A DNA stretch of 64,000 bases from an uncultured Acidobacteriota bacterium (GTDB lineage: Bacteria; Acidobacteriota; UBA6911): NCBI GenBank assembly GCA_963843575.1, contig CAWJKZ010000021.1:64001-128000 (forward strand). The letters are read 5' to 3'. Shown here piece by piece: positions 1,033 through 32,072 of this stretch. Each line of letters opens with the position of its first letter. Position 1 is the first letter of the stretch. The notes below the pieces were generated by a model. The model was not told where the DNA came from, ran no database searches, and saw only the letters and a list, made by a program, of their open reading frames with translations. The position numbers were made by a program, and so were the translations under genes.

Positions 1033-2662
1033 TTAGGCGTGCGTTTCATCCAACAGGCGGATGAGGGTCTGGTAGCGCGGGTTGCTGCGCACGGGGTCGA
1101 GGTTGCTGTCGTGCTCGAGCCAGCCCTTCTCGGTCAGGCCGCTGCGCACAGCCTTTTCGAGTGTCTCGATGGCCTCGCCGGTGGATCCCGCGAGCGCCTG
1201 GATGCAGGCCACGTTGTAGAGGACCATGGGCTCGTCGGGCTCCAGCGCGAGAGCCTGCCTGGCCCACTCGAGCCCCTTGTCGCATTCGCCGAGCGCGACA
1301 AGGCCGTTGGCCCCCATGTAGACGCGCGCGGACGTCGTCGGGATTCAGCCTGAGCCGGGCCTCGGCGAGCTCGACGCCGCGGCGGCGGGTGGCTTCGGCC
1401 TCCGCCGTGCGCCCAAGGTCGGCCAGGATCTGCGCCGACAGCAGGGGCGCCTGGTGGTCCTGGGGGCGGACCTCGCTCGCCTTGCGGTACAGGTCGATCG
1501 CCTTCTCCGGTTTCCCTTGTGCAAAGCTGAACCGGGCGTAGAAGTAGTAGGCTTCGAACAGGAGCGGGTCGAGCCGGATGGCGGTCTCGAAGAAACGCTC
1601 CGGCTCCTCGCGCAGCCCGTGCAGCGACAGGGCGAGCGCGCGCGACGCGTTGGCTTCCGCCGAGTCCGGGTCGCACTCGACGGCGCGCGCGCTGGCCTGC
1701 GCCGCCCGCTCGCGGTGCTCGTCGTGGCTCCCCGCGTACATGTAGAGGAACGAGCAGCAGTCCGCGATGCCGGCGTAGGCGCGGGCATACCCGGGGTCGA
1801 GCTCGATCGCCTGGGAGAACATGTGCAGCGCGAACTCCATCCCCCGGCTCGTGTATCTGTAGTAATACTGCCGGCCGCGCAGGTAGTAGTCGTAGGCCTC
1901 GACGTGGCTCGTCGGGATCCGCGCAATCGCGTCGCTCTCCTTCGGGCTGAGCGTCACCTTGAGCACGGCCGCGATGCTGAGCGAGATCTCGTTCTGGATC
2001 GCGAAAATGTCCTTGAGCTCGCGCGTGTAACGCTCCGACCAGAGGTGGCAGCCGTCCTCGACGCTGATCAGCTCGGCCGTGATGCGCAGCTGGCCGCCCG
2101 CCTTGCGCACGCTGCCGTCCAGGACCGCCGAGACCCCCAGCTTGCGGCCGACGGCGCGCACGTCCTCGGACTTCCCCTTGAAGGCGAACGAGGAGGTGCG
2201 GGCGGCCACCCGCAGGCCGCGGACGTGCGCCAGGTCGTTGATGATCTCCTCGGCGATGCCGTCGCAGAAGTACTCCTGGTCCTTCTCCACGCTCATGTCC
2301 GCGAAGGCCAGCACCGCCACGGACGGCCTGGCGCGGGGGCCGGGGTCGCGCTCCGCGACGGGCGCAATCAGCCGGTAGCCCTTGCGCGAGATCGTCTGGA
2401 TGAAACGCGGGTTCCGGGCGTCGTCGCCGAACGCCTTCCGGAGCTCCGCGATGGAATACGTCAGGATCCCGTCGCTGACGAACGTGTCGGGCCACACCGC
2501 GCGCAGGATCGTCTCCTTCGAGAGGACCTCGCCGGGAGAATCGGCCAGGCACTCAAGCACCTGGATGACCTTGGGCTCGACCGGGACCGCCACCCCCGCC
2601 CTGGAGATCCGGTTCAGGTCCGGCTCCACGCGCCACTCTCCGACCTGGAATGGTCTGCTCAT
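1033..2662 (-). pseudogene. Winged-helix (CadC/ToxR-type Trans_reg_C) regulator with TolB-N-like and TPR domains; +1 frameshift near 1325 (possibly a sequencing error)
   Basis: N-term EPKVIQVLECL...VWPDTFVSDGILTYSIAELRKAFGDD...IQTISRKGYRL; SVAVLAFADMS...QEYFCDGIAEEII; TPRs. The C-terminal TPR continues in the 1033..1317 frame (YMGANGL...VLYNVACIQAL). Reading cgc gcg c(g)tc tac atg restores DVRALYMG. Confidence 0.85.
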
Positions 2663-2820
2663 CGCTCCTCCTTCCGGATGCCGTGAACGACAATCCTGCC
2701 GCAGGCAAGCCGTATTGTGCGCCTCACAAATTCCTCGGGGAAACCTGCCCGCCGCCTCGCGGCGCCGTGCCGTCTAATAGAGCGAACGGCAACGATGTTC
2801 CCAGGAACCAGGAGGATGAT

Positions 2821-3249
2821 ATGAAACGGACTCTGATCGCAGCGCTGCTTCTGACCGGCCTCATTCTGGCCCCCGCGGCCGCCGCACCGGCCGCCTCCGC
2901 TGGCGGGATGCGCGTCGACGTCCCGTTCGCCTTTTACGCCGGCGGCTCGAAACTCCCCGCCGGGGAATACCTCATCGAGATGCGCTCGCTCGCCGGCCGC
3001 ACCACCGCCTCAACCATTGTTATACGTCAGCGGGACGGTTTGGGTTCGCGCATCCTGTTCGCGCTGCCCGGCGACCACGACGGGGCTGGCTCCCCCGATG
3101 GGCTCGTATTCCACCGGTATGCGGATTCCTATTTCCTGTCCGAAGTCCGTCACACCGGCCTGCAGTCGAGCCTGGCCGCGTCGAGCCTCGAAAAGGAAAT
3201 GGCCGTGGCGCAGGTGAATCGGCCAGTGTCGATCGCGGCGGTCCGGTGA
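2821..3249 (+). CDS. Small secreted protein of an acidobacterial family (VPFxF..G...LPAGEY motif)
   Basis: GGAGGA RBS before ATG 2821; signal peptide MKRTLIAALLLTGLILAPAAA; VDVPFAFYAGGSKLPAGEY...LVFHRYADSYFLSEV; paralog at 59047. Confidence 0.75.
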   Translation: MKRTLIAALLLTGLILAPAAAAPAASAGGMRVDVPFAFYAGGSKLPAGEYLIEMRSLAGRTTASTIVIRQRDGLGSRILFALPGDHDGAGSPDGLVFHRYADSYFLSEVRHTGLQSSLAASSLEKEMAVAQVNRPVSIAAVR

Positions 3250-3457
3250 ACCGGCCGCACCTCCTTCCCGGGAGCGCCTGAGGCAATCCTAGCAGAATCC
3301 TCGGCCAACCCTCGTGTTCGCGCGGGCGGCCGGCGGCGTCATAGGGATTGTACCGTCGTGGGCATTCTGTCCGCCGCCGCCCCGCAGCTCCGCGTCGCCG
3401 GGGGCGAGGGGCGCGGCCCCGATCCCGGGAGGACAACCGACAATCCGGAGACACGAG

Positions 3458-7932: not shown

Positions 7933-8016
7933 ATCAACCGCACCGCAACCTCCATATCCCTAACCCCACTTGAAGGCTTTGGCCGGCGGCGCTTCCCGTG
8001 ATACGTTTCTCCTCTC

Positions 8017-10230
8017 ATGATTGATCCCTCACCCAGACTATTGCGGCGCATTTTCGCCTTCGCCTCGGCCTTGGCGCTCTTATCGAGTGTTTTGCGGGCC
8101 GCGGACGTCGCGGAGGTGGCCGCGCGCCGCACAGGCGAGAAGATCAACGTAGACGGGGTCCTGGACGAACCCGTCTGGCGGGAGAGTCCGGGCATCGGCG
8201 AGCTCGTCCAGGTCGATCCTCTTCCCGGGACGCCGGCGACCGATGGGACGCAGGTCTGGGTGGCCTACAGCCGGGACGCCCTGTATGTCGCCGTGCGGTG
8301 CCACGACCGGGACGCGGGCCGTATCGTGGCCACCGATATGGGCCGAGACGCCCGGCTGGAGGAGAAGGACAGGATCGAGATCGTGCTCGACACGCACCAC
8401 GACCACCGCAACGCCTACTACTTCGCCACGAACCCGGTGGGCGCGCTGGTCGACGGGCGCGTGAGCGAGAACCAGGAGCCCGCGCTGGAGTGGGACGGCG
8501 TGTGGCTGGTCCGTACCCTCGTCGACGCCGCCGGCTGGTCGGCGGAGTTCGAGATCCCCTTCAAGACCGTCGGGTTCAGCCGCGGGCTGCGAGAGTGGGG
8601 CTTCAACGTCTCGCGCTTTGTCGGCCGTAACCGGGAGACGTCCCGCTGGGCCTCGCCGTCGCTCGACGTGAAGCTGAACCACCTGTCCCGGGCCGGCCAG
8701 ATCTCCGGCCTTGAGGGGCTGTCCCAGGGTGTCGGCCTCGACGTGAAACCCTACGGCATCGCGGGTTTCACCCGCGACGTCTCCCGCGTGGACATGGTCG
8801 AGGGGACGGCCAAGGCGGGCGCCGACCTCTTCTACCGGATCACTTCCAATCTGGTTTCCAGCACCACCTTCAACACCGATTTCGCGGAGACGGAGGTCGA
8901 CACCCGCCAGGTGAACCTCACCCGCTTCCCGCTTTTCTTCCCGGAGAAGCGCGCCTTTTTCCTGGAGGACGCAGGCACGTTCGAGTTTGGCCTCCGGGGG
9001 GAGAACCACGGCGGCGTGCAGCAGGCGGGCGACCTGCTGCCGTTCTTCTCGCGCCGTGTCGGGCTCGTGGCCGGCGACGAGGTGCCGCTGCGCGCGGGGG
9101 AGAAGCTCACCGGCAAGGTCGGGCGCTTCGACGTGGGGCTACTGGACGTGCAGACCGGCAGCCTCGAGCGGGACGAAGCCGTGGTCGCCCCCGGCCGCAA
9201 CCTCGCGGTCGGCCGCGTGAAGGCGAATTTCCTGAGCCAGTCCTATGTCGGGGCGCTGTTCACCAACGGCGACCCGACCGGGGCGGGCAGCAACCGGGTC
9301 GGGGGACTCGACCTGAAGCTGGCGACCTCCAATTTCCTCAAAAGCGAAAAGAACCTGAGCCTGATCCTCTTCGGCTCGAAGAGCCGAACCGGCGGCGTCG
9401 CGGGGCGCGACGCCGCGTACGGCGGCGAAATCGGCTTCCCCAACGATTTCGTGGATGCCCGGTACAAGCTGCTGAAGATCGGCGAGAACTACAACCCGGC
9501 GCTCGGTTTCGTCCCGCGCCGCGGCGTCCGGATCTCTTCCCTGAGCATGGACGTGCGCCCGCGCCCAAGATTCTGGAACATCCGCCAGATGTCGTTCGAG
9601 CTCGAGTACAACGACTACTACAACCTGCAGGAGCACTCCACGGAGACGCGGGAGCTGAAGCTGACCCCCGTCCAGTGGAGGTTCAACACCGGGGAAATGA
9701 TCAACTACGAGTACTCGCGCAACATCGAGCGGCTCTACGAACCCTGGGAAATCCAGGACGGCGTGGTATTGCCCGCAGGCGAGTACTCCTTCGATGCGCA
9801 CGTGCTGGAGTTCAACACGTCCGAGGCACGGGCACTCTTCGCGGGCCTGCAGTTCGGCACGGGATCGTTCTTCGGCGGGGCGCGCCGGCAGGCCAAGCTC
9901 GAGGCGGCCTGGAGAAAGAACCGCCACCTGACCACCGCCCTGACGCTCGAACAGAACTGGCTGCGGCTCGAGCAGGGCGACTTCGACACGCGCCTGATGA
10001 TGGGCCGTCTGGACTACTCGTTCACACCCTTGGTCACGCTGGCGAACTTCGTGCAGTACGACACCGAAAGCCGCAACATCGGGCTGCAGAGCCGGCTGAG
10101 ATGGATCCTGACCCCAGGGAGGGAATTCTTCGTCGTGCTCAACCACGCCTGGCAGGAAAACGAACTCGACCGCTTCGAATCGGCGCAGACGCGCTTCAGG
10201 GTCAAGTTCAACTACACGTTCCGATTCTAA
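8017..10230 (+). CDS. CBM9-like / DUF5916 outer-membrane protein
   Basis: INVDGVLDEPVW...LYVAVRCHD...WSAEFEIPF (CBM9-like); NTDFAETEVDTRQVNLTRFPLFFPEKRAFFLE (DUF5916); C-terminal KFNYTFRF beta-barrel signature. Confidence 0.85.
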   Translation: MIDPSPRLLRRIFAFASALALLSSVLRAADVAEVAARRTGEKINVDGVLDEPVWRESPGIGELVQVDPLPGTPATDGTQVWVAYSRDALYVAVRCHDRDAGRIVATDMGRDARLEEKDRIEIVLDTHHDHRNAYYFATNPVGALVDGRVSENQEPALEWDGVWLVRTLVDAAGWSAEFEIPFKTVGFSRGLREWGFNVSRFVGRNRETSRWASPSLDVKLNHLSRAGQISGLEGLSQGVGLDVKPYGIAGFTRDVSRVDMVEGTAKAGADLFYRITSNLVSSTTFNTDFAETEVDTRQVNLTRFPLFFPEKRAFFLEDAGTFEFGLRGENHGGVQQAGDLLPFFSRRVGLVAGDEVPLRAGEKLTGKVGRFDVGLLDVQTGSLERDEAVVAPGRNLAVGRVKANFLSQSYVGALFTNGDPTGAGSNRVGGLDLKLATSNFLKSEKNLSLILFGSKSRTGGVAGRDAAYGGEIGFPNDFVDARYKLLKIGENYNPALGFVPRRGVRISSLSMDVRPRPRFWNIRQMSFELEYNDYYNLQEHSTETRELKLTPVQWRFNTGEMINYEYSRNIERLYEPWEIQDGVVLPAGEYSFDAHVLEFNTSEARALFAGLQFGTGSFFGGARRQAKLEAAWRKNRHLTTALTLEQNWLRLEQGDFDTRLMMGRLDYSFTPLVTLANFVQYDTESRNIGLQSRLRWILTPGREFFVVLNHAWQENELDRFESAQTRFRVKFNYTFRF

Positions 10231-19829: not shown

Positions 19830-22145
19830 GTGATCGGCGACACCCTCTCACACTACCGTATCATCGAAAAGCTGGGCCAGGGCGGAATGGGTGAGGTGTA
19901 CCTTGCCCACGATGAACACCTGGACCGCAGGGTCGCCATCAAAGTCCTTCCTCCCGGTTCGCTTTCCGACGACTCCGCCCGCAAGAGGTTTCGAAGAGAA
20001 GCCCTGGCGCTCGCGAAACTGAATCACCCGAACATCGCCACCAGTCACGACTTTGATTCTGCCGGAGGCGTCGACTTCCTGGTGATGGAGTACGTGGCGG
20101 GCCCCACCCTAGGCAGCCGTCTCGCTGCCGGACCACTGCCGGAAAAACAGATCGCGCAGCTCGGGGAGCAGCTGGCCGAAGGACTGGCGGCCGCACACGC
20201 GGCAGGAGTCGTCCACACAGACCTCAAGCCGGACAACCTCAGGGTCACGGACGATGGCAGGCTGAAGATCCTGGATTTTGGGCTTGCCAGGCTGCTGAAG
20301 ACACCGGGCGTGGACGTGTCCACGATGACCGCTGCGTCCGGGACGGTCTGCGGTACCTTGCCCTACATGGCGCCGGAACAGTTGCGCGGAGACCGGCTGG
20401 ATGCGCGGACCGATATCTGGGCGGCCGGGGCGGTGCTCTATGAGCTTTCCACCGGTAAGCGCCCTTTCGAGGAGACGCTCGGTACGAAGCTGGTGGATGA
20501 CATTCTGCACTCGATGCCGCCGCTGCCGAGTGCATCCAACCGGCGCCTTTCCCCGGCGCTCGAGGCCATCATCGTCAAGTGCCTGGAGAAGAACCCGGAG
20601 AATCGGTACCAGTCCGCGAACGAACTCGCAGTTGACCTGCGTCGGCTGGCATCGCCGACCCAGCTGCCGACCGTCGCGAGGCGGCGGAAATGGCCCATCC
20701 CGGCTGCGGTCGCGGCCGCAGCCGCGGTCATCGCCGCCCTTTTCGCGTTCGATGCGGGACATCTGCGCAGCCGTGTTTGGGGCGGGGGTGTGATCGACTC
20801 GATCGCCGTGCTGCCTTTCCAGAACATCTCGCAGGATCCTCAACAGGAGTACTTTTCAGACGGGATGACGGAGGCCCTGATCGCCGAGCTTTCCCGCATC
20901 CACGCCCTGAAGGTGATTTCGAGCACCTCCGTGATGCGGCTCAGGAATACGAAGAAGACGATGCCGCAGGTCGCGCAGGAACTGGACGTCGAGGGAGTGG
21001 TGGAGGGTTCGGTGCTCCATGCGGGCGACAAGGTGCGGGTGACCGCTCAGCTCATCCGCGCACGGGAAGACCGCCCGCTTTGGACCGAGAGCTACGAGCG
21101 TGATTTGAAGGATATCATCAGTCTCCAGACGGAGTTGGCCCGCGCCATCGCCGGCGAGATCCGGATCACCGTCACGGCGCAGGAAGAGCGCTCCCTTGCC
21201 AGAAGCCACACGGTCCTTCCGGAGGCACACGAGGCGTACCTGAAGGGGCGCTACTACGCCAACCGGACGGCCAATGCACGTGCAATCGAGGCCTTTCAGC
21301 AAGCGATAAGCAAGGATCCTCAATATGCCGAGGCCTACGCGAGTCTCGCCCAGCAATACGCCTTCGCGCTGCCCGCCCATGAAGTCATGCCCAAGGCGAA
21401 GGCGATGGCTTTGAAGGCGGTCGAACTGGACGACTCGCTCGCGGAAGCGCACGCGGCGTTGGCCACGGTGGCCTACCTATACGAGTGGCAGTGGGCCGAA
21501 GCCGAGAAGGAACTCAAACGGGCGCTCGAGCTCGATCCCAATTCGACGTCGGTTCACACCCAGTACGCGTATTTTCTCATCGCACTGGGCCGGCTTGACG
21601 AAGCCTTGAAGCAGGCTGAAATCGCGCAGAGGCTGGACCCCCTCTCACTCTCGAATAACCTGAATTACGGGCGGGCCCTGTACTTCGCCAGGCGCTTCGA
21701 CGAAGCGATCGCCCAGTACAACAGGACGCTGGAACTCGACGGCAACTACGCGGCGGCTCACTTATTCCTCTGCTTCGCGCTGGAGCAAAAGGGGCGACTC
21801 GACGAGGCGATGGCCCACATGATCAAAGCACGAACGCTGGTCTCAGACAATGCCCTGGCCGGCCTCATCGCGGACACCTACGCTCGCATCGGCTACATAG
21901 GAACGTTGAAAGCGTGGGCGGCGTACTGGGAATCGGGGATTCGCGACGGGAGCGTACAACCGACCAGCGTGGCTATGCTCTACGCGCGTGCCGGAGATAA
22001 AGACAAAGCCATGCAGTACCTCGAACAGGGCTTTCGAGAGCACACGCGCGCCATCGTCACCCTGAAGGTGGAGCCGCAGCTGGACAACCTCCGGACCGAC
22101 CCGCGTTTCACAGGCCTGATCAAACGAATGGGCCTGCCCGAATAG
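19830..22145 (+). CDS. Ser/Thr protein kinase with TM helix, TolB-N-like and TPR domains
   Basis: LGQGGMGEVY; VAIK; HTDLKPDN; DFGLA; GTLPYMAPE; SIAVLPFQNIS...QEYFSDGMTE; TPRs. Confidence 0.93.
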   Translation: MIGDTLSHYRIIEKLGQGGMGEVYLAHDEHLDRRVAIKVLPPGSLSDDSARKRFRREALALAKLNHPNIATSHDFDSAGGVDFLVMEYVAGPTLGSRLAAGPLPEKQIAQLGEQLAEGLAAAHAAGVVHTDLKPDNLRVTDDGRLKILDFGLARLLKTPGVDVSTMTAASGTVCGTLPYMAPEQLRGDRLDARTDIWAAGAVLYELSTGKRPFEETLGTKLVDDILHSMPPLPSASNRRLSPALEAIIVKCLEKNPENRYQSANELAVDLRRLASPTQLPTVARRRKWPIPAAVAAAAAVIAALFAFDAGHLRSRVWGGGVIDSIAVLPFQNISQDPQQEYFSDGMTEALIAELSRIHALKVISSTSVMRLRNTKKTMPQVAQELDVEGVVEGSVLHAGDKVRVTAQLIRAREDRPLWTESYERDLKDIISLQTELARAIAGEIRITVTAQEERSLARSHTVLPEAHEAYLKGRYYANRTANARAIEAFQQAISKDPQYAEAYASLAQQYAFALPAHEVMPKAKAMALKAVELDDSLAEAHAALATVAYLYEWQWAEAEKELKRALELDPNSTSVHTQYAYFLIALGRLDEALKQAEIAQRLDPLSLSNNLNYGRALYFARRFDEAIAQYNRTLELDGNYAAAHLFLCFALEQKGRLDEAMAHMIKARTLVSDNALAGLIADTYARIGYIGTLKAWAAYWESGIRDGSVQPTSVAMLYARAGDKDKAMQYLEQGFREHTRAIVTLKVEPQLDNLRTDPRFTGLIKRMGLPE

Positions 22146-22156
22146 GCGTCAGGGCC

Positions 22157-23509
22157 TCACGTCAGCTTCGCCAACGCCGCGCTGTGGGTCCGAAGTTTGC
22201 GGACCGCAGCGATGATGTGGTCGATGTCGGTTCGATCAGCCAACAGCATGTTCTGGCCGATTCCCACAGTCGTGGCGCACACCTGCTTGTTGCCCTTCAG
22301 CTCCGCGAAGCTCTCCCGGTAGGCGCGCAACCTCTGAGCGCTCCAGAGGCGCTTGAAGCCGCGTGAGGCGATGGCTTCGTCCAGCAGACCGTCGTAGTAC
22401 TGCTCCCCGTACACGCTCGAGCAGGGGACCCCTTCGGCGGAAAGCGCCTGCAAAAACTTGCCGTGGGAGAGGCCGTTGAACTGCGCCGGGTCGTAGCGGA
22501 ATGCATAGAGATGCCACACCGCCCGGCTGTTCGCCGGCAGCCGAACGGGTGTAATGCCCGGGATCTGGGCCAGGTTGGCGCTGAGGTAGTCGGCGCTTTC
22601 GCGCCGCACGGCCGTTTCCTTCTGCAGCTTCTCGAACTGCTGCAGCAGCAGCACGGCCTGCGCCTGCGTCATGCGATAGTTGTTGCCGCGGGTGAAACTG
22701 CCGGTGCCTTTGAAGTTCCCGCTGGTGCGGCCGCAGTTGTGGAAGGCGTTGCAGCGATCGATCAGGTCCTCGCTCATGCTCGTGATCGCGCCGCCTTCGC
22801 CCGACGGGATGTGCTTGGATTCCTGGAAGCTGAAGCAGCCCAGGTCGCCAATGGTGCCGCACTTGCGGCCCTTGTACTCGGCCAGCCACGCCTGGCATGC
22901 GTCCTCGATGACGGCCAGCTTGTGTTTTTGGGCAATCGCGACGATCGGGTCCATATCGCACGGCATGCCGAAGATGTGCACCGGCATGATGGCGCGGGTG
23001 CGCTCGGTGATCCGGCTCTCGATGGACGCGGGATCCATCGTGAGCGTCGCCGGATCGGTGTCGGCGAACACGGGGAGCGCCTTCGTCGTGAGGATCGAGT
23101 TGTACGTGGCTATGAACGTGTAGGGCGAGGTGATGACCTCATCGCCCGCGTCCACGTTCATGACGTGCAAACTCACGATGAGGGCGGTGGTGCCGCTGGC
23201 GGTAGCTAGGCATTTGCCGGCGCCGAGCAGCTGCGCGTAAGCCTTTTCGAAATCGGTCACGTTGGTGCCGGATCCCCGGAACCACTTGCCGCTGCGGTAG
23301 ACTTCGAGAATCTTCGGTTCCCAGGCTTCGCGCCACTGCGGCCACGGCATCCATCCGCCCTTGTGGACGGGCGCGCCGCCCATCAGTGCCGGTTTGTCGC
23401 CGTCGGCGGCGAAGGTGATCGGACCCCGGCGGGCACTCAGCCACGAGAAAGCGGCGGCGCCCGCCGCACCGGTTCGGATGAAGCCACGTCGTGTCAGATC
23501 TTCTTTCAT
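22157..23509 (-). CDS. DegT/DnrJ/EryC1/StrS PLP aminotransferase with Tat signal
   Basis: LTRRGFI Tat motif; SGTTAL; PYTFIAT; IEDACQA; FSFQESKHIPSGEGG (PLP lysine). Confidence 0.9.
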   Translation of the reverse strand: MKEDLTRRGFIRTGAAGAAAFSWLSARRGPITFAADGDKPALMGGAPVHKGGWMPWPQWREAWEPKILEVYRSGKWFRGSGTNVTDFEKAYAQLLGAGKCLATASGTTALIVSLHVMNVDAGDEVITSPYTFIATYNSILTTKALPVFADTDPATLTMDPASIESRITERTRAIMPVHIFGMPCDMDPIVAIAQKHKLAVIEDACQAWLAEYKGRKCGTIGDLGCFSFQESKHIPSGEGGAITSMSEDLIDRCNAFHNCGRTSGNFKGTGSFTRGNNYRMTQAQAVLLLQQFEKLQKETAVRRESADYLSANLAQIPGITPVRLPANSRAVWHLYAFRYDPAQFNGLSHGKFLQALSAEGVPCSSVYGEQYYDGLLDEAIASRGFKRLWSAQRLRAYRESFAELKGNKQVCATTVGIGQNMLLADRTDIDHIIAAVRKLRTHSAALAKLT

Positions 23510-23946
23510 GGGATTACCCCCCTACAATCAGGCCATTGACGCGTTGCAGGTCATGAATCCACTGGGCCTCGTTGATGATGGGCCCACACTCTACGGCCGC
23601 CCCTCCTGCCAGACCGGAAGTTTGCAGGCACACGCATTATACCTTCAGATCCTTCGACGGGTGCTCGTCGAAATGGTCCGCGAGCCGGCCTGGAAGGGCA
23701 AAAGCAAAAACGGAACGTGGGTGTTCGCGGATTTGGCGGATTCACGAACCGTGAAACCTTCACGGAACGGGCTGGGGGGAGGGCTGAATCCTATAAGGGC
23801 TCGCATCAACCGACTCCACGTCTCTTTCATATGCCATGCTTGTTTCCTTTCACGGGGTCGCAGACCAAGGCAGCATGATCCGGTCCGGCGTGCAGAGTGC
23901 GAGCCTGACCCTCTGATGGGGTGGCCTGCTACCGCGGTTCCCCGGC

Positions 23947-24453
23947 CTATCGATTTGCGGCCTTGACAGCCCTGTCCGTGGCAACCGAGCCGTGCATCTG
24001 GACGATGAGCCACCTCCCGCCCCTTTTCTCGAGCACGCCCGTCCAGCGGATGTCTCTCGCGCCCGCAGGCTTGCCGTCCCACTCCCCGAGATCGTCGAGC
24101 GTAGCCGAGTACCATGCGACGTCGCCTGACCGGGAGAGGTGGACCTGTAGGTCACGGACCTCCGTCGCCGTAACCTTGAACCTCGAATCCATCCAAATAT
24201 CGAACAGCTTCACGTAGTTGCCCCACCCGGTCACGGCCGATTTCGAGTTGGTCCAAACAACGAACAAGTCGTCGTCGTGAGCCATGGTGCTTTCCTGAAG
24301 CGCCCGGTCCTTGGTCAAGGCCCAGCAGATCGAGTCGTTGATTATCCGTGCGATTGCAGCCTTGTCGGTTTCCCTGTCCCCGGCGGTCCCTCGAGCCTCC
24401 GGCCCGCTGATTGCGGATAAAATGAGCAATAGAACACTCGTCGTGACGGCCAC
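23947..24453 (-). CDS. Secreted SnoaL/NTF2-like protein
   Basis: Signal peptide; SGDVAWYS...RWTGVLEKRGGRWLIVQMHGS; GGAGG RBS before GTG. Confidence 0.8.
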   Translation of the reverse strand: MAVTTSVLLLILSAISGPEARGTAGDRETDKAAIARIINDSICWALTKDRALQESTMAHDDDLFVVWTNSKSAVTGWGNYVKLFDIWMDSRFKVTATEVRDLQVHLSRSGDVAWYSATLDDLGEWDGKPAGARDIRWTGVLEKRGGRWLIVQMHGSVATDRAVKAANR

Positions 24454-24816
24454 TTTGTCCTCCCTGAATTCTTAAGCCTTCGATCCCAGATTCTGAAAGC
24501 GAAGGTACGACGGGCAGATCGCAGGGAGTTGTTAGGTTTTTGCGAGGATTTGTTTTGTTCGGGCGAACGCCGGGTCGAATGGGCGTGTAGGGTGCGGCCC
24601 GAAGTCGGAATACCCGGCTTGAGCCTTACGATCCAGTGAGATGGACTGGATATTATGGTTAGTTACCTATGATTAACCCCCACCAATTATTAGCGGCGTT
24701 GGCCCCGCAGTGTTGCGAGATTCGAACCCGTGTGCTTGGCCATAGCATTCTGGCAGGGCGCGCGTATTCTATTAGGAGAGCCTGTGGCCGGGTGCGAGCG
24801 GGTGGCGGTGGACGGG

Positions 24817-25710
24817 ATGAAACGGTTGGGAATCGTTTTGGGTGTTGTGCTGGGAGCCGTGCCGGCGCTGCGCTGCTCCTGCCCGGTGCATGCGAGTCAC
24901 GCCGCGGTCCCGCGGTCGGAATGGCGAGGCTCCCTGACCCTCTATCGGCGGCCGCTGGAGATCCGTTGCTCCCGCGCGGGCGGGCCGGACCCTTCCTGCC
25001 TGGTTGTCTATGCGACGGGCGACGGCGGGTGGCGCGGGCTCGACGAGCAGCTCTACGAATGGTTCTCGGAGGAGGGGTACGCGGTCGCGGGTTTCAGCTC
25101 GCGCAGCTATCTGAAGAACCTCGGGTATGTCTCCGACACGACGACCCCCGAGCGCCTCGTCGAGGACTTCCGGCTGATCATCGACTTTGCCGAGGGGCGG
25201 CTCGGGTTGCCCGCTTCGACGCCGGTCATCCTGGCGGGCCTCTCGCGGGGTGCTGGGCTGTCGGTGGTCGCCGCGGGGGAGGGGGAGCTGAAGCCGCGGC
25301 TCGCGGGACTGCTGGCGGTCGCGCTGACGCGCGAGGAGGAGTACGTGCGCCACTACGGGTGGCGGGACCGCCGCGGATCGGCCGGCACGCCGAAGAGGGA
25401 GCTGGTCGAGATTAAGACCTACGACTATCTTTCCCGCCTGTCGGGCTTCCCAGTGATGGTGATCCAGTCCACCGGGGACAACTACGTTACCGCCGATGCG
25501 GCGCGCGAATTGTTCGGGCCCGACACCCCGCTGCGCAGGCTGAGGGCTGTCGACGCGCGCAACCATCGTTTCAGCGGCGGGTGCGAAGCCCTGCACAGCG
25601 AAGCGCTGGCCGGGCTGGCATGGATCCGGGAGACCGCTGACCGGACCGGCAAGGCTGGTCCCGGGCCGAGTCCGACCGTGTCCTCCGGCTTTTTTTCGTG
25701 TCCTCCGTGA
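24817..25710 (+). CDS. AcvB/VirJ-family aminoacyl-phosphatidylglycerol hydrolase-like alpha/beta hydrolase (copy 1)
   Basis: Signal peptide; YATGDGGWRGLD; nucleophile elbow LAGLSRGA; NHRFS catalytic His. Confidence 0.8.
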   Translation: MKRLGIVLGVVLGAVPALRCSCPVHASHAAVPRSEWRGSLTLYRRPLEIRCSRAGGPDPSCLVVYATGDGGWRGLDEQLYEWFSEEGYAVAGFSSRSYLKNLGYVSDTTTPERLVEDFRLIIDFAEGRLGLPASTPVILAGLSRGAGLSVVAAGEGELKPRLAGLLAVALTREEEYVRHYGWRDRRGSAGTPKRELVEIKTYDYLSRLSGFPVMVIQSTGDNYVTADAARELFGPDTPLRRLRAVDARNHRFSGGCEALHSEALAGLAWIRETADRTGKAGPGPSPTVSSGFFSCPP

Positions 25711-25722
25711 CGAGTTGTTTTG
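25676..25722. repeat. GGACACGG-type dispersed repeat
   Basis: The reverse complement caaaacaactcgtcacggaggacacgaaaaaaagccggaggacacgg aligns with 58637-58684 caaaaacaactcgacacgcaggacacggaaaaaagcagaaggacacgg. Confidence 0.7.
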
Positions 25723-25820
25723 ATTTTCGGGGCGCAGCAATCCTCTGTCGCATCCACGCCGAGGATGTAGGACTCGTTCAGGGCGTCGAGCTGGCGCACC
25801 CCGGATTGCGGCCGCGCCGC

Positions 25821-26576
25821 TCACCTGCCTTTGATCCAGTCCAGCGCTTCGAGTAGGCGACGGTCCAGCTCGTCGCGCCGGTCGCTGAAACGGTGGTTTG
25901 CGGCGTCGATCACCCACATCCTCTTCGGATCGCCCGCGCGCGCGAGCATGGACTTGGCGAGTTCGAGCGAGACAAACTCGTCGTGGGTGGAGTGGACTTC
26001 GGCGAGCGGGACCGGGCTGACCTTCCCGATGACGTCCTCGACCATGAAGCTCGGCTCGCTGGGGGCCTTCTTGGTGATCCAGATCGTGAAATCCTGCCAC
26101 TTCCATCCCAGTTCGTTCTGGTCCGGCAGGCCCAGCCCGAGTACGCCCTGGATCTGTGGTTTCAGTGCGGGGTCGGCCGCTGCCAGCACCGACAGGCCGG
26201 CGCCTTCGGAGATGCCGGCCAGGACAGGCCGCTCTGTGTTCCCGCGGCGGGCATAGTCGATGAGGGCCCTGAAGTCGCGCGGCACGTCGGCCGGGTCGAG
26301 CGCGGCGTCCTTCGAGGTGAAGCTGGCCAGGTATGCGCGGCTATTGAAGCCCACGACGCGGTAGCCCCGGGAGGAGAGAAACTCCGCGACGTGGACCGCC
26401 AGCCCCGCCCACCCGAGATCGCCGCTGGAGAGTATCACGGGCGGGCCGCCCGGGTTTCCGTACAGGTGGAGTTCCTGGCTCTTTCCGCGAAGGTCGATGC
26501 TCGCCGGCGCCTGCGCCGGCTCGAACGCCCAGGCGGCGAGCAGGGCGGGGAGGAGCAAAAGGGCGACCAGTCGCAC
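25821..26576 (-). CDS. AcvB/VirJ-family aminoacyl-phosphatidylglycerol hydrolase-like alpha/beta hydrolase (copy 2)
   Basis: Signal peptide; LSSGDLGWAGL; LAGISEGAG; NHRFS; start separated by 1 nt from the synthase stop. Confidence 0.82.
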   Translation of the reverse strand: MRLVALLLLPALLAAWAFEPAQAPASIDLRGKSQELHLYGNPGGPPVILSSGDLGWAGLAVHVAEFLSSRGYRVVGFNSRAYLASFTSKDAALDPADVPRDFRALIDYARRGNTERPVLAGISEGAGLSVLAAADPALKPQIQGVLGLGLPDQNELGWKWQDFTIWITKKAPSEPSFMVEDVIGKVSPVPLAEVHSTHDEFVSLELAKSMLARAGDPKRMWVIDAANHRFSDRRDELDRRLLEALDWIKGR

Positions 26577-26577
26577 G

Positions 26578-28779
26578 TTACCTCCTCAACAGCTGCAGCA
26601 GTCCGCCGGAGCTGTGGACGGCGGTGAGGGCATAGGCCACGCGCGGCAGGTCCGCCCCTTTCGGGTAGATCAGGAAGCGGCCTTCCCATGCGGGGGCGAA
26701 CTTTTTTTTGAACATGAAAAGGTTCTTGTACCCGTAAAAGGCGTTCATGTGCTCGAACAGGAGCGCCACGCCGCGCTCGAGCGTACCCCGGGGTTCGGCG
26801 GAGTTGGCGAGGGGTGCGTTGGCCAGGCTCGCGGTGGCGACGCCGTTCTCCTTCAGGGCGAGGAGCGAGTGGGCGATGAGGATGTCCATTGTCCCGGCCG
26901 GCGCGTCGCGACGCTTGCGCATGAGGTCGAGCACGCAGGCGTTCCCCTGACGGTAGGGGAGCCAGGAGCAGAAAGCCTCGATCCTGGTGCCGATCCGGGC
27001 GACGAACAGCGGCTTGCCGCGAAGGGAATCCAGGGAAAAGCGGCCCAGGGTGAAGCCCAGCTCCCCCATGTGCTTCTCGGAGAGCCACTCCTGGGAGATC
27101 TCCTCGAGCTGCTCGTCGGTCGCGGGCGCTGGCTTGGCCGCGCGATCGTATGGCTCCACTGTCATCCCGGTCTTGAGGGCTTTGTTGACCATCGCGCGCA
27201 CGTTCGCCCGCTTCCCGCCGGAGAGCGAGAACTCCTTCAGATCCAGGACGGCCTCTTCGGCGATCTTCAGGGAGCGGAGTCCCAACGCCTGATAGACGGG
27301 AAGCCGCTCTTCGGCCGCTTCGTAGATGCAGGGCGTCCAGCCGTTCCTGCCGCAATGCTCCAGGAAGTCGCGGACGCCCGTCTCGAAGTCCGCGTCGGGG
27401 ACGAGCGGGTCGCCGCAGGCCAGCGCCACGGCGCCGCGCACCGCGTAGGCCGCCAGTCCGCGGCCGCCGGCCACGAGGAGGTGGTGTTTGTCCTCCTGGA
27501 TCGCGAAGGCCGACAGCGCGTGCCGGCTGTGCTCCCGGAAGATCGTTTCGACGGTCTCGGGCGAGGCCTCGAGCCTGCGGCGCAGAACCACGGGCCGGAG
27601 GAACATCAGGAGAAGGTAGAAGCGCCCCAGCCACCCGGCGATCTGCAGCGATCCGAGGAAGCGGGCCGCCTGGGGCGTCAGAGGGTCGACTTGCGGCTCG
27701 ATCACGAGGATCCCGGAGCGCACGGCCTCGGTCGCCGGCGTCGCTCCGGCGAACCAGGTGAAGTGCTCCCGGCGATGGTTCAGCCCGGTGTGCCCATAGG
27801 TGAATATGGCGAGGGCGAGCAGCGGGGCCATGAACGCCGCGGTCCTCAGCGACGCCGGATCGCTGCGCGCATAGTAGCGGCGCCGATAGACGACGAGGTA
27901 GGCGAGCAGGAGGGATGCCACCAGCGAGTGGTGCAGATCCAGGGCCCTCGTGATGTGTGTCAGGAGGGAAACCGCCAGCGCCGTGACCGCCACGTACCAG
28001 GCCAGCTCCTTGCGCCGGGACAGGTTTCTCATCACCTGGAGCAGGGCGATGCCGGCGAACAGCATCAGGGGCCGGCTGCGCTGGGTGACCTCGAGGGGCA
28101 GCCAGGAATCGACGAAACGCAGCGAGGCGGCCGAACGCGGCCAGATCGCCGACACCAGGTTAATGGCGCCCATCGCCCCGATCAGGACGGGAACGAGCCT
28201 GTGGAGGTCGCCGACGCGCAGGTCCTCCACCCACTCCGCGTGCCGCAGGTGCCGCAGCAGCAGGATCAGCAGGCCCGCGACGAGCAGGCCGCCCACCACC
28301 CAAACCTCGTATTTCTTGATACCGGACAGGACCCTCTCGGCGGCGTGCCCCGAATAGTACCCGATCAGCGCCGTGGGCACGGCCCAGATGGCACCCGCGA
28401 CGAGGTTCAGGAGAAAGAAGCGCAGCGGCGGCATTCTCAGCGCGCCGCACGCGGCCGGTATGATGATCCTGAACCCGAAGGCGTAACGGCTGGCCAGCAG
28501 CAGCCAGTCGGCATAGCGGCCCATGTGAGCCATGAGCCGCTTGTAGCGCGGGTTGTCGCCGAAGCGTCTCTCGAGCCACGCGTAGCCGCGCGTGCGCGCC
28601 AGCCCGTAATAGATCTGGTCCGCGGCGCAGTTGGATGCCACGGCGACCAGGATCACGAGCGGCAAGTGCAGGATGCCGCGGTGGGCCAGGAAGGCGCCCG
28701 CCAGCAGGAAAGCCTCACCCTCGACCGCCACCCCCACAAACAGCAAGGCGTACCCGTACTTGACGAGCAATGCGTCCAT
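26578..28779 (-). CDS. DedA (VTT) domain fused to aminoacyl-phosphatidylglycerol synthase (LysX-type TM region + DUF2156/LPG_synthase_C)
   Basis: N-term YGYALLFVGVAVEGEAFLLAG...SRYAFGFRIIIP (YohD-like DedA); TM block NLSRRKELAW; C-term ACGDPLV, KIAEEAVLDL..FSLSG, ELGFTLG, LDLMR...GTMD, SLANAPLA, FYGYKNLFMFKKKFAPAWEGRFL. Confidence 0.88.
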   Translation of the reverse strand: MDALLVKYGYALLFVGVAVEGEAFLLAGAFLAHRGILHLPLVILVAVASNCAADQIYYGLARTRGYAWLERRFGDNPRYKRLMAHMGRYADWLLLASRYAFGFRIIIPAACGALRMPPLRFFLLNLVAGAIWAVPTALIGYYSGHAAERVLSGIKKYEVWVVGGLLVAGLLILLLRHLRHAEWVEDLRVGDLHRLVPVLIGAMGAINLVSAIWPRSAASLRFVDSWLPLEVTQRSRPLMLFAGIALLQVMRNLSRRKELAWYVAVTALAVSLLTHITRALDLHHSLVASLLLAYLVVYRRRYYARSDPASLRTAAFMAPLLALAIFTYGHTGLNHRREHFTWFAGATPATEAVRSGILVIEPQVDPLTPQAARFLGSLQIAGWLGRFYLLLMFLRPVVLRRRLEASPETVETIFREHSRHALSAFAIQEDKHHLLVAGGRGLAAYAVRGAVALACGDPLVPDADFETGVRDFLEHCGRNGWTPCIYEAAEERLPVYQALGLRSLKIAEEAVLDLKEFSLSGGKRANVRAMVNKALKTGMTVEPYDRAAKPAPATDEQLEEISQEWLSEKHMGELGFTLGRFSLDSLRGKPLFVARIGTRIEAFCSWLPYRQGNACVLDLMRKRRDAPAGTMDILIAHSLLALKENGVATASLANAPLANSAEPRGTLERGVALLFEHMNAFYGYKNLFMFKKKFAPAWEGRFLIYPKGADLPRVAYALTAVHSSGGLLQLLRR

Positions 28780-28910
28780 CGGCCCCTATTGTATTGCCGG
28801 GCGAGGCCGAGGACGCAGCTAAATTCTGCAAAGTGCTCCGGGTCTCCGTCTTCCGCGTCCGGCCGTCTGCCGATGAGGAGCGCGGGTACGAACAATCCCG
28901 GGAAACAGTG

Positions 28911-28972
28911 AATCTGGAAGTACCTCCGCTGCGGTATGGGCGGGGCGGCGTCGAGCCGCCGCACTCCAGATT
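28911..28972. repeat. REP-like palindrome, TGGAGTGCGG family
   Basis: The - strand reads aatctggagtgcggcggctcgacgccgc...ttccagatt, with terminal IR aatctgga/tccagatt. Confidence 0.55.
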
Positions 28973-30617
28973 AGACGCCGGGGAGGCACAGGCAGGGGGA
29001 TTTGATCCGGATGTCGGCTTGCTTCCAGGCCGCGTCGAATCTCTTTTCGACGGCGGACGCCTCCGGCTCCTTTTTCTGGACCTGCAGCGAGCGCATGAGC
29101 CCGTAGAGCCCCCATCCGTTCTCCGGCTGTCTGGCGAGGTCCTCGCGAAAGACGGCCTCCGCCTCGGCGGATCGGCCCGCCTGTAGGAGCGCGGCGCCGA
29201 GCGCATGACGCACCGGCTGAATCCACGACGGCGGCTCGTCGTATCGGAGCTTGTCCTCGCGTGCGGCCGCTTCGCGCAGGGCGGCGAGGCCTTTTTCCGT
29301 CTCGCCGGAACGGAAGAGGACCTCCCCTCGCATGAAGCTCTCGGCCACGTCGAGGACGTCGGAGCCCGAGTTGTTACCGAAGAACGCGTCCTCCGGCACC
29401 CGGGTGCGCGCCTCGAGGAACGCGGCCTGCTCGCGCAGGGCGGAGGGCAAGTCGTCCTTGGCCGCGTACGCCACGGACCGGGCGTAGTGCTGGAGCGCGC
29501 GTGAGATCGGCACGAAATCCGGGAAAGCGGGTTCGGCCAGGATGTCGTCCCACCTGCCGAAGCGCATCATCACCTCGAGCGGCATGGCCATGAAACCGTC
29601 CGCGAAGGGGTTTTCCCGGAAGAACTCCCGCGGGATGGCCGCGACCATCTCCCTCATCGTCGAGAGCGCGCGGGCGCCCTGGCCCGTCATCATGGCCGCG
29701 TAGGCCAGCATGTGGTGGTTGTGGGCCATGTAGAGGCGGTAGAAACCCTGTTCCGGCACCCGCGCGGTGTACCGGCGGTCGGCGTCGATGGCCTTGGTGT
29801 TTGCTGTGATCGCCTGCTGCCAGCGCCCGCGCCGCACGTCGATGTGAGACGGCATGTGGACCAGGTGCCCCAGGCCGGGTTGCAGGTCGCGCAGCGTGTC
29901 GGCTGCCCGGTCGGCCTTCCCGGGTTGAGGGGAAGCCTCCAGCGCATGGATCACCAGGTGATTGCCCAGCGGGTGCTTCGGATCGATGGCGAGGACGGAT
30001 TCGAGCACCCCGATGAGCTCCCCGGTGCCGGGCTGCGGCTTGCCGTCCGGCGTCCAGAGATCCCACGGTCGAAGATCCGCGAGCGATTCGGCGAAGAGCG
30101 CGCCGACGTCGGGGTCCCCAGGAAACGCTTTCCAGACCTGCCGCATCGCGTCGGCGTAAGCCTTGTCGAGCGCGGCCCTGTCCTTGGGCCGGGGATCCGC
30201 ATAGCGGTGCTCCAGTGCACCGATCAAGGCGCGTTCGATGGCGTTTGCCCGGGGAGCGAGACCCCGAGCCCGGGCGAGGGCCTCCCATGCCTCCCTGGCG
30301 CGGTCATCGGGAACCACCGGGTTGTTGATGTGCGGGCCGTTTGCGATTGAGATGCCCCAGAAAGCCATCGCACACTCCGGGTCGATCTCGCCCGCGTGCC
30401 GGAAAGCACGGATCGCCTCGTCGTGGTTGAAGGCGTACATTAAGGCGAGCCCCTGGTTGAAATAGCGCTGCGCTTCGGGCGAACTGCTGGTGACCTCGCG
30501 CCCGAAACCGCCCAGCCCCTCGAAAAGGGGCGGTGGGCCCACCTCGGCGGCGAACTCGACGCCAAGCGAAACGAGCGACAGAAGAAGAACGGGCAGGGCT
30601 GCGCGCAGTTTTCCCAT
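28971..30617 (-). CDS. Secreted TPR-repeat protein (conserved hypothetical)
   Basis: Signal peptide; AQRYFNQGL..YAFNHDEA; HLVIHALE; GHLVHMPSHI; YMAHNHHML; TPR helices. Confidence 0.8.
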   Translation of the reverse strand: MGKLRAALPVLLLSLVSLGVEFAAEVGPPPLFEGLGGFGREVTSSSPEAQRYFNQGLALMYAFNHDEAIRAFRHAGEIDPECAMAFWGISIANGPHINNPVVPDDRAREAWEALARARGLAPRANAIERALIGALEHRYADPRPKDRAALDKAYADAMRQVWKAFPGDPDVGALFAESLADLRPWDLWTPDGKPQPGTGELIGVLESVLAIDPKHPLGNHLVIHALEASPQPGKADRAADTLRDLQPGLGHLVHMPSHIDVRRGRWQQAITANTKAIDADRRYTARVPEQGFYRLYMAHNHHMLAYAAMMTGQGARALSTMREMVAAIPREFFRENPFADGFMAMPLEVMMRFGRWDDILAEPAFPDFVPISRALQHYARSVAYAAKDDLPSALREQAAFLEARTRVPEDAFFGNNSGSDVLDVAESFMRGEVLFRSGETEKGLAALREAAAREDKLRYDEPPSWIQPVRHALGAALLQAGRSAEAEAVFREDLARQPENGWGLYGLMRSLQVQKKEPEASAVEKRFDAAWKQADIRIKSPCLCLPGV

Positions 30618-30896
30618 GGATGCCTCCGGATTCGGTGATGTCTCACGGACGCCGCGCTCCCCGAGACCGCGGGCGTCTGCTTTCCCCTTCGCGGGATGTT
30701 GACTCCCATCAGGATAACCCGCCGGCCGCGCCGCGACCACCCCCTATCGACGACCGCGATTTCCCGCCGGGGGCGGTCGGCGGTCCCGGTGTGGCCCCCT
30801 TTTCGTTCGATTTTCGTGGTGTCGGCGCCTGCGGTTCTGATCTATGCTCGGCGTCGCGAGGGCGGTTCGACCGATCACCATGATGGGAGGCGGGTC

Positions 30897-32072
30897 ATGA
30901 TTTCCAGACGGGGGGTTCTGAAAGGTGCCGCGCTGACCGCGCTGTCGTACGGACGCGTGCTGGGCGCGAACGAAAAGGTCGGGTTGGGATTGATCGGCGC
31001 GGGCGGTCGCGGCAGGTCGGTCCTCGGCACGTTCCTGCGCAACCCCGAGGTGGACCTCCGGGCCGTATGCGACGTCTACGGCGCGCGCAACGAAGAGGTG
31101 CGGGCCAAGGTTCCCGCGGCAAGGCCTTTCCAACAGCACGAGAAACTGCTCGAGATGAAGGACGTCGACGCCGTGCTGATCGGATCGCCCGACCACTGGC
31201 ACAAAGTCCACGCGGTCGACGCGATGAGTTCCGGGAAGGACGTGTACGTCGAGAAGCCCCTCTGCCGCACGCTCGACGAGGCTCCGGAGATGGTCCGGGC
31301 CGCGCGTCGCCACAACCGGATCTGCCAGGTCGGCGTGCAGCAGCGCTCGGGACCGGTCTACATCGAAGCGCGCGACCGGTTCGTCAGATCGGGCCTCATC
31401 GGCACCGTCAGGTGGGTGGAGTGTGTCTGGAACGACGGTCCGTCGCGGCCATACGCGCCGCCCGCGGGTGGGAAGCCGGCGGACCTCGACTGGGTGCGCT
31501 TCCTCGGCCCTGCGCGCTACCGGGATTGGAACGCGAGGATGTACTTTAACTTTCGCGCCTACCTGGACCTCAACGGCGGGCGCATGACCGATTTCGGCCA
31601 CCACTGGCTCGACGTCGTCCACATGTACCTTGGGGAGAGGGCCCCGGATTCGGCCGTCGCCGCGGGGACGATCTTCGATACGCAGGATGGGAAGGATGCG
31701 CCGGACGTCGTATCGGCGTTGTTCGAGTACCCGGGGTGCACCGTCTCGTTCCAGTCCGCGATCGTGGGCAACCCCCTGCCTTACGGCGTCACCTTTTATG
31801 GCGACAGGGGCAAACTGTACGTCAACCGCAACCGCTACGTGTTCACGCCGGCGGAGAAGGGGGCGGAGCCGGTCCAGCAGGATTTCCCGGGCGACATCAC
31901 CGCCGATCACGTGCGCAATTTCCTCGACTGCTGCGGTTCACGGAAGTTGCCGAACGGCGACGTGGCGCTCGCGGCCGTCTCCATACAGCCGCCGCTGCTA
32001 GCCGTCAAATCGTATCTGGAAAAACGCCGCTTCCGCTTCGACGCCGATCACTCACTGATACTTCCCGAATAG
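30897..32072 (+). CDS. Gfo/Idh/MocA family oxidoreductase with Tat signal
   Basis: ISRRGVL Tat motif; GLIGAGGRG; IGSPDHWH; KDVYVEKP; GGRMTDFGHHWLD. Confidence 0.92.
   Translation: MISRRGVLKGAALTALSYGRVLGANEKVGLGLIGAGGRGRSVLGTFLRNPEVDLRAVCDVYGARNEEVRAKVPAARPFQQHEKLLEMKDVDAVLIGSPDHWHKVHAVDAMSSGKDVYVEKPLCRTLDEAPEMVRAARRHNRICQVGVQQRSGPVYIEARDRFVRSGLIGTVRWVECVWNDGPSRPYAPPAGGKPADLDWVRFLGPARYRDWNARMYFNFRAYLDLNGGRMTDFGHHWLDVVHMYLGERAPDSAVAAGTIFDTQDGKDAPDVVSALFEYPGCTVSFQSAIVGNPLPYGVTFYGDRGKLYVNRNRYVFTPAEKGAEPVQQDFPGDITADHVRNFLDCCGSRKLPNGDVALAAVSIQPPLLAVKSYLEKRRFRFDADHSLILPE

Follow-up and report, generated by a model that had tools for sequence, protein, structure and literature searches.

Fusions of a DedA domain with MprF, an aminoacyl-phosphatidylglycerol synthase (aaPGS), are the closest described counterparts of the gene analyzed here. 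They were noted in the Discussion and in the legend of Fig. 5 by Roney and Rudner (2023, PNAS; PMC10193950), where the fusion was inferred both to make and to transport its lipid; the basis given there is a census of InterPro architectures, not experiments. A 2025 paper on MprF of P. aeruginosa repeats the inference and, in its text on this point, describes the two transport domains as somewhat interchangeable (PMC11980842). We analyzed a gene of this kind, encoding a 733-aa protein in which a DedA domain precedes an MprF-like synthase, together with two adjacent genes for VirJ-like hydrolases. The genes lie in a stretch of 64,000 nucleotides (hereafter the window; positions 64,001 to 128,000 of contig CAWJKZ010000021.1) from an uncultured Acidobacteriota bacterium.

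The movement of phospholipids across the bacterial inner membrane is poorly understood, and direct evidence for transport of glycerophospholipids by bacterial DedA proteins is thin. A DedA domain in the place of a lipid translocator, beside an enzyme whose product is easily detected and can be labelled in the outer leaflet, is a convenient test case for this family. The original prediction, made from the letters of the window, knew of no characterized example of the architecture. Our literature search, with subscription journals and supplements outside its scope, likewise found no experimental study of a DedA-aaPGS fusion. The novelty thereby implied was nevertheless overstated, because the architecture and the same inference are found in PMC10193950 and again in PMC11980842. 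The locus is an uncharacterized member of a kind so far described by architecture alone, and since the idea of DedA as the transporter was already published in 2023, its value is that of an experimental handle. With a probability of roughly 0.6, we regard the protein as an MprF-like synthase with a DedA translocation module, whose product is trimmed by the VirJ-type hydrolases.

Architecture and conservation of the fusion protein

The catalytic DUF2156 domain (PF09924) was found with 241.1 bits (Pfam cut-off 27.5) and is intact, as originally proposed. Among solved aaPGS domains, it was aligned by phmmer with 4v36 (E = 1.7e-42) and 5vrv (E = 2e-41). An AlphaFold2 (AF2) model of the whole fusion, built on an alignment of 50 sequences, reached a mean predicted local distance difference test (pLDDT) score of 81 and a predicted TM-score (pTM) of 0.65. 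In Foldseek, its catalytic domain matched the same two structures with TM-scores, normalized by target length, of 0.89 for 5vrv (root mean square deviation 2.5) and 0.86 for 4v36.

In front of this domain lies the membrane block expected for MprF and LysX. Positions 314-840 of the 841 positions of the NCBIfam model bifunc_MprF (NF033480) aligned with aa 184-723 of the fusion, whereas model positions 1-313 were unmatched; the score of 344.6 bits is under the equivalog cut-off of 600. The LysX model was matched from its position 24 onward. Because bifunc_MprF was matched solely over positions 314-840, the flippase part of MprF is absent and the membrane block of the synthase is present. Consistent with this, Pfam gave no match to the flippase family PF03706 in the fusion protein at E <= 0.01. 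PF09335 and PF09924 in the fusion and PF06057 in the neighboring genes were also found as anticipated, but PF16995, which had been expected as well, was not detected in the fusion at the same threshold; in a precomputed Pfam column it is given for 24 of the 120 homologues among the matches listed (our own count).

The AF2 model shows a low-confidence linker at aa 180-187, after the DedA domain, followed by six long helices in the membrane block (aa 189-212, 236-254, 258-279, 282-297, 308-335, and 369-398). Judged by the helix pattern and by the positively charged loops, these would be six transmembrane helices, whose number and orientation are deduced from the charge distribution. The block would run from inside to inside and leave the catalytic domain in the cytoplasm. 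The DedA domain would have its N-terminus inside, comprise four spanning helices and two hairpins, and end inside.

The N-terminus belongs to the DedA family and not to PF03706. Pfam assigned PF09335 (VTT/DedA) to aa 21-141 with 54.8 bits (cut-off 33.9). A comparison of the first 190 aa with YohD of E. coli K-12 gave 33% identity over 145 aa (E = 1e-26); with YqjA it gave 23% (E = 2e-4). A complete YohD-like domain had been predicted here, and this assignment held. We know of no substrate assigned to YohD.

In an alignment of 35 fusions, E20, G21, R98, G102, R104, A109, C111, and G112 were invariant and E22 and P108 nearly so; M1 was also nearly invariant, so the start codon is common to the homologues. 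For YqjA, four essential residues (E39, D51, R130, and R136) have been reported at the tips of two re-entrant hairpins (bioRxiv 10.1101/2021.10.18.464800). In a pairwise alignment, the fusion has R98 opposite R130, R104 opposite R136, and E22 opposite D51, with E39 of YqjA outside the aligned part. The helix pattern of the DedA domain in the AF2 model, as distinct from its coordinates, which were not inspected, is compatible with two such hairpins. The domain is placed directly before the synthase block, and we infer, as originally proposed, that it substitutes for the flippase, a reading with which all of these results agree.

We found nothing in favor of an assembly or gene-calling artefact in which a DedA gene was merged with a short aaPGS gene, and its chance of explaining this architecture is practically negligible. 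The protein is encoded by a single uninterrupted open reading frame (ORF). All 120 homologues among the matches listed (60-100% identity, ~734 aa) combine PF09335 with PF09924; they come from NCBI, JGI, ENA, and Logan, and where source names are present, these are Acidobacteriota or Vicinamibacteria. When one genome from each of 185,579 species was scanned by pattern, 50 loci were obtained, and 34 of them carry the protein near full length in independent genomes, with matches that start at or before residue 16 and end at or after residue 722. The fusion is no assembly chimera, since all listed homologues and these 34 loci carry it intact.

The remaining loci comprise 13 incomplete matches, truncated at contig ends or partial for other reasons, and three short aaPGS genes without DedA in Verrucomicrobia-type records (L088-L090). 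Record titles of the 50 loci name mostly Acidobacteriota, Terriglobia, Vicinamibacteria, and Solibacteraceae, besides three Acidimicrobiia and one Deltaproteobacteria. Among 401 genomes sampled evenly from the phylum of the window, the fusion is rare: a match over residues 1-733 occurred in the window's own genome only. A first locus scan with the single protein returned three loci only. Clustering at 50% reduced the family to a handful of representatives (P0033 and P0121-P0124), with more distant DedA fusions in P0126, P0127, and P0150. In a midpoint-rooted FastTree phylogeny of the synthase part (39 sequences, no support values shown), the DedA fusions cluster in a single group, which also takes in a protein of 610 aa. 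For this tree we took 25 of the 26 sequences with a checked Pfam architecture and 14 others chosen from the list, omitting P0127 and P0150 as partial.

On two occasions, a pair of loci came from different contigs of one metagenome-assembled genome (MAG), namely L052/L053 and L061/L065. In tblastn, the fusion of L078 and of L079 and the VirJ-like gene of L095 appeared as fragments in different frames, for which sequencing indels in the MAGs are the likeliest cause and real breaks the alternative.

VirJ-like hydrolases and their linkage to the fusion gene

Both neighboring hydrolases matched PF06057 (VirJ), hydrolase 1 with 37.7 bits and hydrolase 2 with 38.0 bits (cut-off 22), and they are the only two PF06057 proteins encoded in the 6.7 Mb genome. 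Their sequences share 34% identity (E = 2e-34). The genes had been labelled AcvB/VirJ. Being single-domain proteins of ~250 aa, they are of the VirJ form and not of the two-domain AcvB form; single-domain VirJ, also ~250 aa, has been reported as a proven periplasmic Lys-PG (lysyl-phosphatidylglycerol) hydrolase (PMC13135905). A hydropathy scan found hydrophobic N-terminal stretches at aa 1-22 of hydrolase 1 and aa 3-25 of hydrolase 2, which may serve for export.

Modelled with AF2 (pLDDT 85.6), hydrolase 1 has an alpha/beta hydrolase fold. Foldseek retrieved only generic alpha/beta hydrolases for it from the PDB; AcvB (9xhm and 9xhn) was not among these matches, perhaps because the PDB copy ends on 8 April 2026. 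With a profile built from 31 members of the family, 9xhm was the best PDB sequence (E = 1.9e-18), and the better match lay in its C-terminal catalytic domain. This domain by itself is reported to suffice for AcvB activity (PMC13197417). A single-sequence phmmer search gave E = 5e-6, in keeping with a distant relation to AcvB/VirJ; hydrolase 2 aligned with chain positions 243-358 of 9xhm.

Several functional residues of AcvB have been described in the same study (PMC13197417), including (i) the catalytic pair Ser336 and His433; (ii) Asp271, Asp340, and Asp370, all required for activity, with the substrate-binding Asp340 reported as conserved in homologues; (iii) the loop with Trp378 and Leu379, which binds the membrane; and (iv) the role of Asp370, which is tied to the lysine side chain and replaced by Thr or Ser in organisms with alanyl-phosphatidylglycerol (Ala-PG). 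We derived equivalences by counting along the chains in the alignments as printed, 9xhm being offset by +20. The counterpart of Asp271 is D53 of a GDxGW motif (GDGGW and GDLGW in the window proteins, GDGGW in AcvB). Ser336 corresponds to S123 within GISEG in hydrolase 1 and GLSRG in hydrolase 2, compared with GYSFG in AcvB. Across the 31-sequence alignment, D53, S123, D199, and H228 are invariant, the His as part of an NHRF motif. In our own reading of the alignments, Asp370 corresponds to a nearly invariant Glu (E155 in hydrolase 1), and a conserved GW aligns with Trp378.

The hydrolase 1 gene starts with GTG 1 nt past the TAA stop of the fusion, and GAGGAGG precedes this start, so that the two genes are probably one translation unit. 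This junction and the convergent orientation of the hydrolase 2 gene, both part of the original prediction, follow from the ORF coordinates. Linkage to the fusion is not universal in the family. We could use 38 of the 50 loci, namely those of the fusion family that include the 3′ terminus of the gene followed by 1 kb or more of sequence; the others were L088-L090 (not fusions), L096 (a gene fragment), L059, L070, and L072 (short downstream sequence), and L071, L081, L084, L087, and L094 (3′ end missing). In 16 of the 38, an orthologue of hydrolase 1 (49-81% identity) lies directly 3′ of the fusion on the same strand, in two pieces in L095. In L058 it is found just upstream on the opposite strand, and L065 and L091 have a relative of hydrolase 2 about 3 kb away. 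The arrangement of the window, with one coupled and one convergent hydrolase, recurs only in the closest relative (L048, 87% identity), and in L060 and L079 hydrolase 2 stands in tandem rather than convergent. L063, also one of the 38, has a second DUF2156-like stretch ~1.8 kb downstream of the fusion, 36% identical to aa 456-725, followed by a weak VirJ match (Table 1).

Other genes around the fusion do not travel with it. The TPR, SnoaL, DegT, and GFO proteins of the window had no tblastn match at E <= 1e-8 in the 50 loci, which places them outside the system. This result also bears on the proposal that the VirJ-like proteins are periplasmic aminoacyl transferases that take the exported lipid as donor for another envelope component. 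Such a role, which the original prediction had raised for the hydrolases, would fit the presence of two diverged paralogues, the SEG and SRG motifs in place of the SFG of AcvB beside the nucleophile, and a Gly at the position of Asp340. No acceptor-related gene, however, is conserved nearby; the characterized AcvB and VirJ are reported to be hydrolases (PMC13197417, PMC13135905), and the window proteins keep the Ser, the Asp, and probably the His expected of such an enzyme. We found nothing to support the use of the lipid as an aminoacyl donor and consider it very unlikely. An equally improbable, more far-reaching version would have DedA as a dedicated exporter of aminoacyl-lipids and one of the VirJ-like proteins passing the aminoacyl group to another envelope molecule. 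If true, the locus would encode a lipid-carrier pathway for periplasmic aminoacylation, and a substrate would for the first time be assigned within the YohD branch of DedA proteins.

Proposed function and alternative readings

In the mechanism that we favor, the cytoplasmic DUF2156 domain, anchored by the six-helix block, would use aminoacyl-tRNA to charge a membrane lipid with an amino acid; phosphatidylglycerol is the most likely acceptor. The YohD-type DedA domain would take the place of PF03706 and carry the product to the outer leaflet. Hydrolase 1 and its convergent paralogue would be exported and would cut the aminoacyl ester at the periplasmic face. In this way they would set the level of the modified lipid, as is the case for LpiA with AcvB/VirJ in Agrobacterium. 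The substrates, the translocation by DedA, and the export and activity of the hydrolases are assigned here by sequence comparison and should be taken as probable at best.

A number of points weigh against this mechanism. These comprise (i) the substrates, given that neither the amino acid nor the lipid acceptor can be read from the sequence; (ii) four stand-alone PF03706 genes on other contigs of the same genome, whose products could flip the lipid; (iii) a proposed role of DedA proteins as ion or proton exchangers (bioRxiv 10.1101/2021.10.18.464800); (iv) the description of MprF as a promiscuous scramblase (PMC11980842), owing to which 'dedicated exporter' is perhaps too strong a term for either module; and (v) the PF06057 model itself, which was matched by the hydrolases only in its N-terminal half (positions 3-100 of 191). 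Further, (vi) the position of Asp340 is occupied by Gly, in a GAG motif, in both window hydrolases and in the whole 31-sequence alignment; (vii) the His of NHRF meets a His at chain position 189 of 9xhn, identified as AcvB His433 through the offset count, in a sub-threshold stretch only; and (viii) VirJ is missing within 4 kb in 18 of the 38 usable loci. When PF06057 was searched genome-wide in five genomes without an adjacent copy, three gave weak matches elsewhere and two none. With 18 loci and two genomes lacking VirJ, the hydrolase is not an obligate partner. A complex prediction for the fusion with mature hydrolase 1 (score 0.00, mark 0.32) bears on neither side.

The stand-alone PF03706 genes keep alive a reading in which the synthase works as proposed and DedA does not translocate its product. 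DedA might instead deliver bulk phospholipid or scramble it, link the enzyme to the proton gradient, or act as a scaffold in the membrane or for oligomerization, and the product would get outside via a stand-alone PF03706 protein or unaided. Short aaPGS genes that carry no fused partner, which are common among the cluster representatives (according to the Pfam domains of P0135 and P0143), also fit this reading. On the other hand, none of the PF03706 genes is on the contig of the window, the charged residues of DedA are invariant across the fusions, and other DedA members, namely PetA, UptA, and TMEM41B/VMP1, are reported to be implicated in lipid transport (PMC10193950). Related genomes point in the same direction. 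Six loci (L019-L023 and L026) were picked from 30 loci of the phylum sample, with aaPGS ORFs of 553-730 aa (551-664 aa from the first start codon), and in four of the six (L020-L023) a separate PF03706 gene directly follows the aaPGS gene, an argument that the synthase is normally accompanied by a translocator of its own. Overall, we consider a non-translocating DedA unlikely.

The other two chosen loci have the order aaPGS-VirJ-PF03706 (L019) or aaPGS-VirJ alone (L026). L020 belongs to the window's own family, of which the other sampled members had no match. Among the representatives of the 50% clusters, PF03706 occurs at the C-terminus of the synthase (P0172 and P0242), VirJ is fused to it N-terminally (P0137 and P0158) or C-terminally (P0189 and P0209), and one synthase has an N-terminal rhomboid domain (P0250). 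From these split and fused variants it appears that the synthase module combines freely with translocator and hydrolase; in the window, the place of the translocator is held by DedA.

The four stand-alone PF03706 genes lie on contigs C14, C4, C13, and C17 (L003-L006), none of them near an aaPGS gene. One is within a 564-aa ORF, and one PF03706 match holds an in-frame TGA. The genome has no canonical MprF, and its only PF09924 match besides the fusion is a soluble protein of 300 aa that consists of DUF2156 only, without hydrophobic helices (L002 1477-2379 (-), contig C24). This protein may transfer aminoacyl groups from tRNA to an acceptor other than a lipid. An adjacent ORF (2366-3262, -) looks GNAT-like by eye.

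A second alternative concerns the substrates: the modified lipid may not be phosphatidylglycerol, or the amino acid may not be lysine. Examples are Ala-PG, an aminoacyl-diacylglycerol, or a glycolipid, with DedA and the diverged VirJ-like enzymes fitted to a different head group. The fusion scored 148.8 bits with the Lys-PG synthase 4v36 and 137.3 bits with the Ala-PG synthase 4v34, a difference that does not separate lysine from alanine enzymes. The named NCBIfam neighbors of the DedA domain are solely UptA models, at 25.9 bits and far under their cut-off of 300, and the Gly at Asp340 in both VirJ-like proteins would likewise accord with another head group. Lysine, however, is favored by E155 of hydrolase 1, which aligns with the lysine-linked Asp370 described for AcvB (PMC13197417), and the membrane block has matching counterparts in MprF and LysX. 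A different substrate is possible, yet we think it improbable.

Gene layout and comparison with described systems

The coordinates of the locus are listed in Table 1. The two hydrolase genes converge with a gap of 110 nt. The length of hydrolase 2 was counted from the ATG used in the original prediction; the ORF itself opens at GTG 24730. A promoter scan found no sigma-70-like site in 24400-29100, the terminator-like sites of the same region fall within genes, and no Rfam families were found in 22000-32000. An antisense ORF of 444 aa (24772-26106, -), which overlaps both VirJ-like genes, was rejected as a gene. Its translation is rich in Arg, Pro, and Gly, and we judged it, ahead of any scan against family libraries, to be a wrong frame of G+C-rich DNA. 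The N-terminus of the DegT-type aminotransferase, RRGFIRTGAAGAAAF, resembles what we take to be a twin-arginine signal.

Table 1. Features of the DedA-aaPGS locus and its surroundings; positions refer to the window, except in the last row
Feature	Position	Strand	Description	Basis
Fusion gene	26578-28779	-	733 aa; DedA domain, six-helix membrane block, DUF2156	ORF, Pfam, NCBIfam
DedA (VTT) domain	28225-28779	-	aa 1-185; YohD type	PF09335, YohD identity
Synthase-proximal membrane block	27586-28215	-	aa 189-398; six long helices	AF2 model, NCBIfam alignment
DUF2156 / LPG_synthase_C domain	26665-27537	-	aa 415-705; catalytic domain	PF09924, phmmer, Foldseek
VirJ-like hydrolase 1	25821-26576	-	251 aa; hydrophobic N-terminal leader; GISEG serine motif	PF06057, AF2, family profile
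VirJ-like hydrolase 2	24817-25710	+	297 aa; paralogue, convergent; GLSRG serine motif	PF06057
Spacer 5′ of fusion gene	28780-28970	-	191 nt; probable promoter region	no promoter detected
TPR protein	28971-30740	-	589 aa; 191 nt upstream of fusion	
SnoaL-like protein	23947-24453			
DegT/DnrJ/EryC1-type aminotransferase	22157-23509	-		
GFO/IDH/MocA oxidoreductase	30696-32072			
Locus L063, DUF2156-like stretch and weak VirJ match	7994-8803 and 8923-9294			tblastn

Relative to the published description, the present analysis adds the YohD-type assignment, the conserved arginines, the distribution in Acidobacteriota, the VirJ linkage in 16 of the 38 loci, and the split systems of aaPGS with PF03706. 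The conserved arginines offer targets for mutation, and the split systems in related genomes are possible controls for swaps of the translocator.

The fusions of Roney and Rudner (PMC10193950) are alike in that DedA replaces the flippase domain of MprF before the Lys-PG synthase part; the Discussion and the figure legend devoted to them come without named taxa, DedA subtype, or hydrolase neighbors. With bifunctional MprF/LpiA (7duw, 7f47, and 9goe), the window fusion shares the six-helix block with DUF2156 and a gene pairing like that of lpiA and acvB, but it is without the N-terminal PF03706. The hydrolases resemble VirJ/AcvB in their single alpha/beta-hydrolase domain of ~250 aa, their N-terminal leader, and the position of the gene beside an aaPGS gene. 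They differ by the Gly at Asp340 and by the presence of two paralogues, one of them convergent. The DedA domain has the VTT domain in common with YohD, YqjA, UptA, and PetA, along with arginines of the YqjA type, and is set apart from them by its fusion to an enzyme. Finally, the split MprF systems of related genomes (L020-L023) have the same synthase module; there, PF03706 is downstream and unfused, whereas in the window DedA is upstream and fused.

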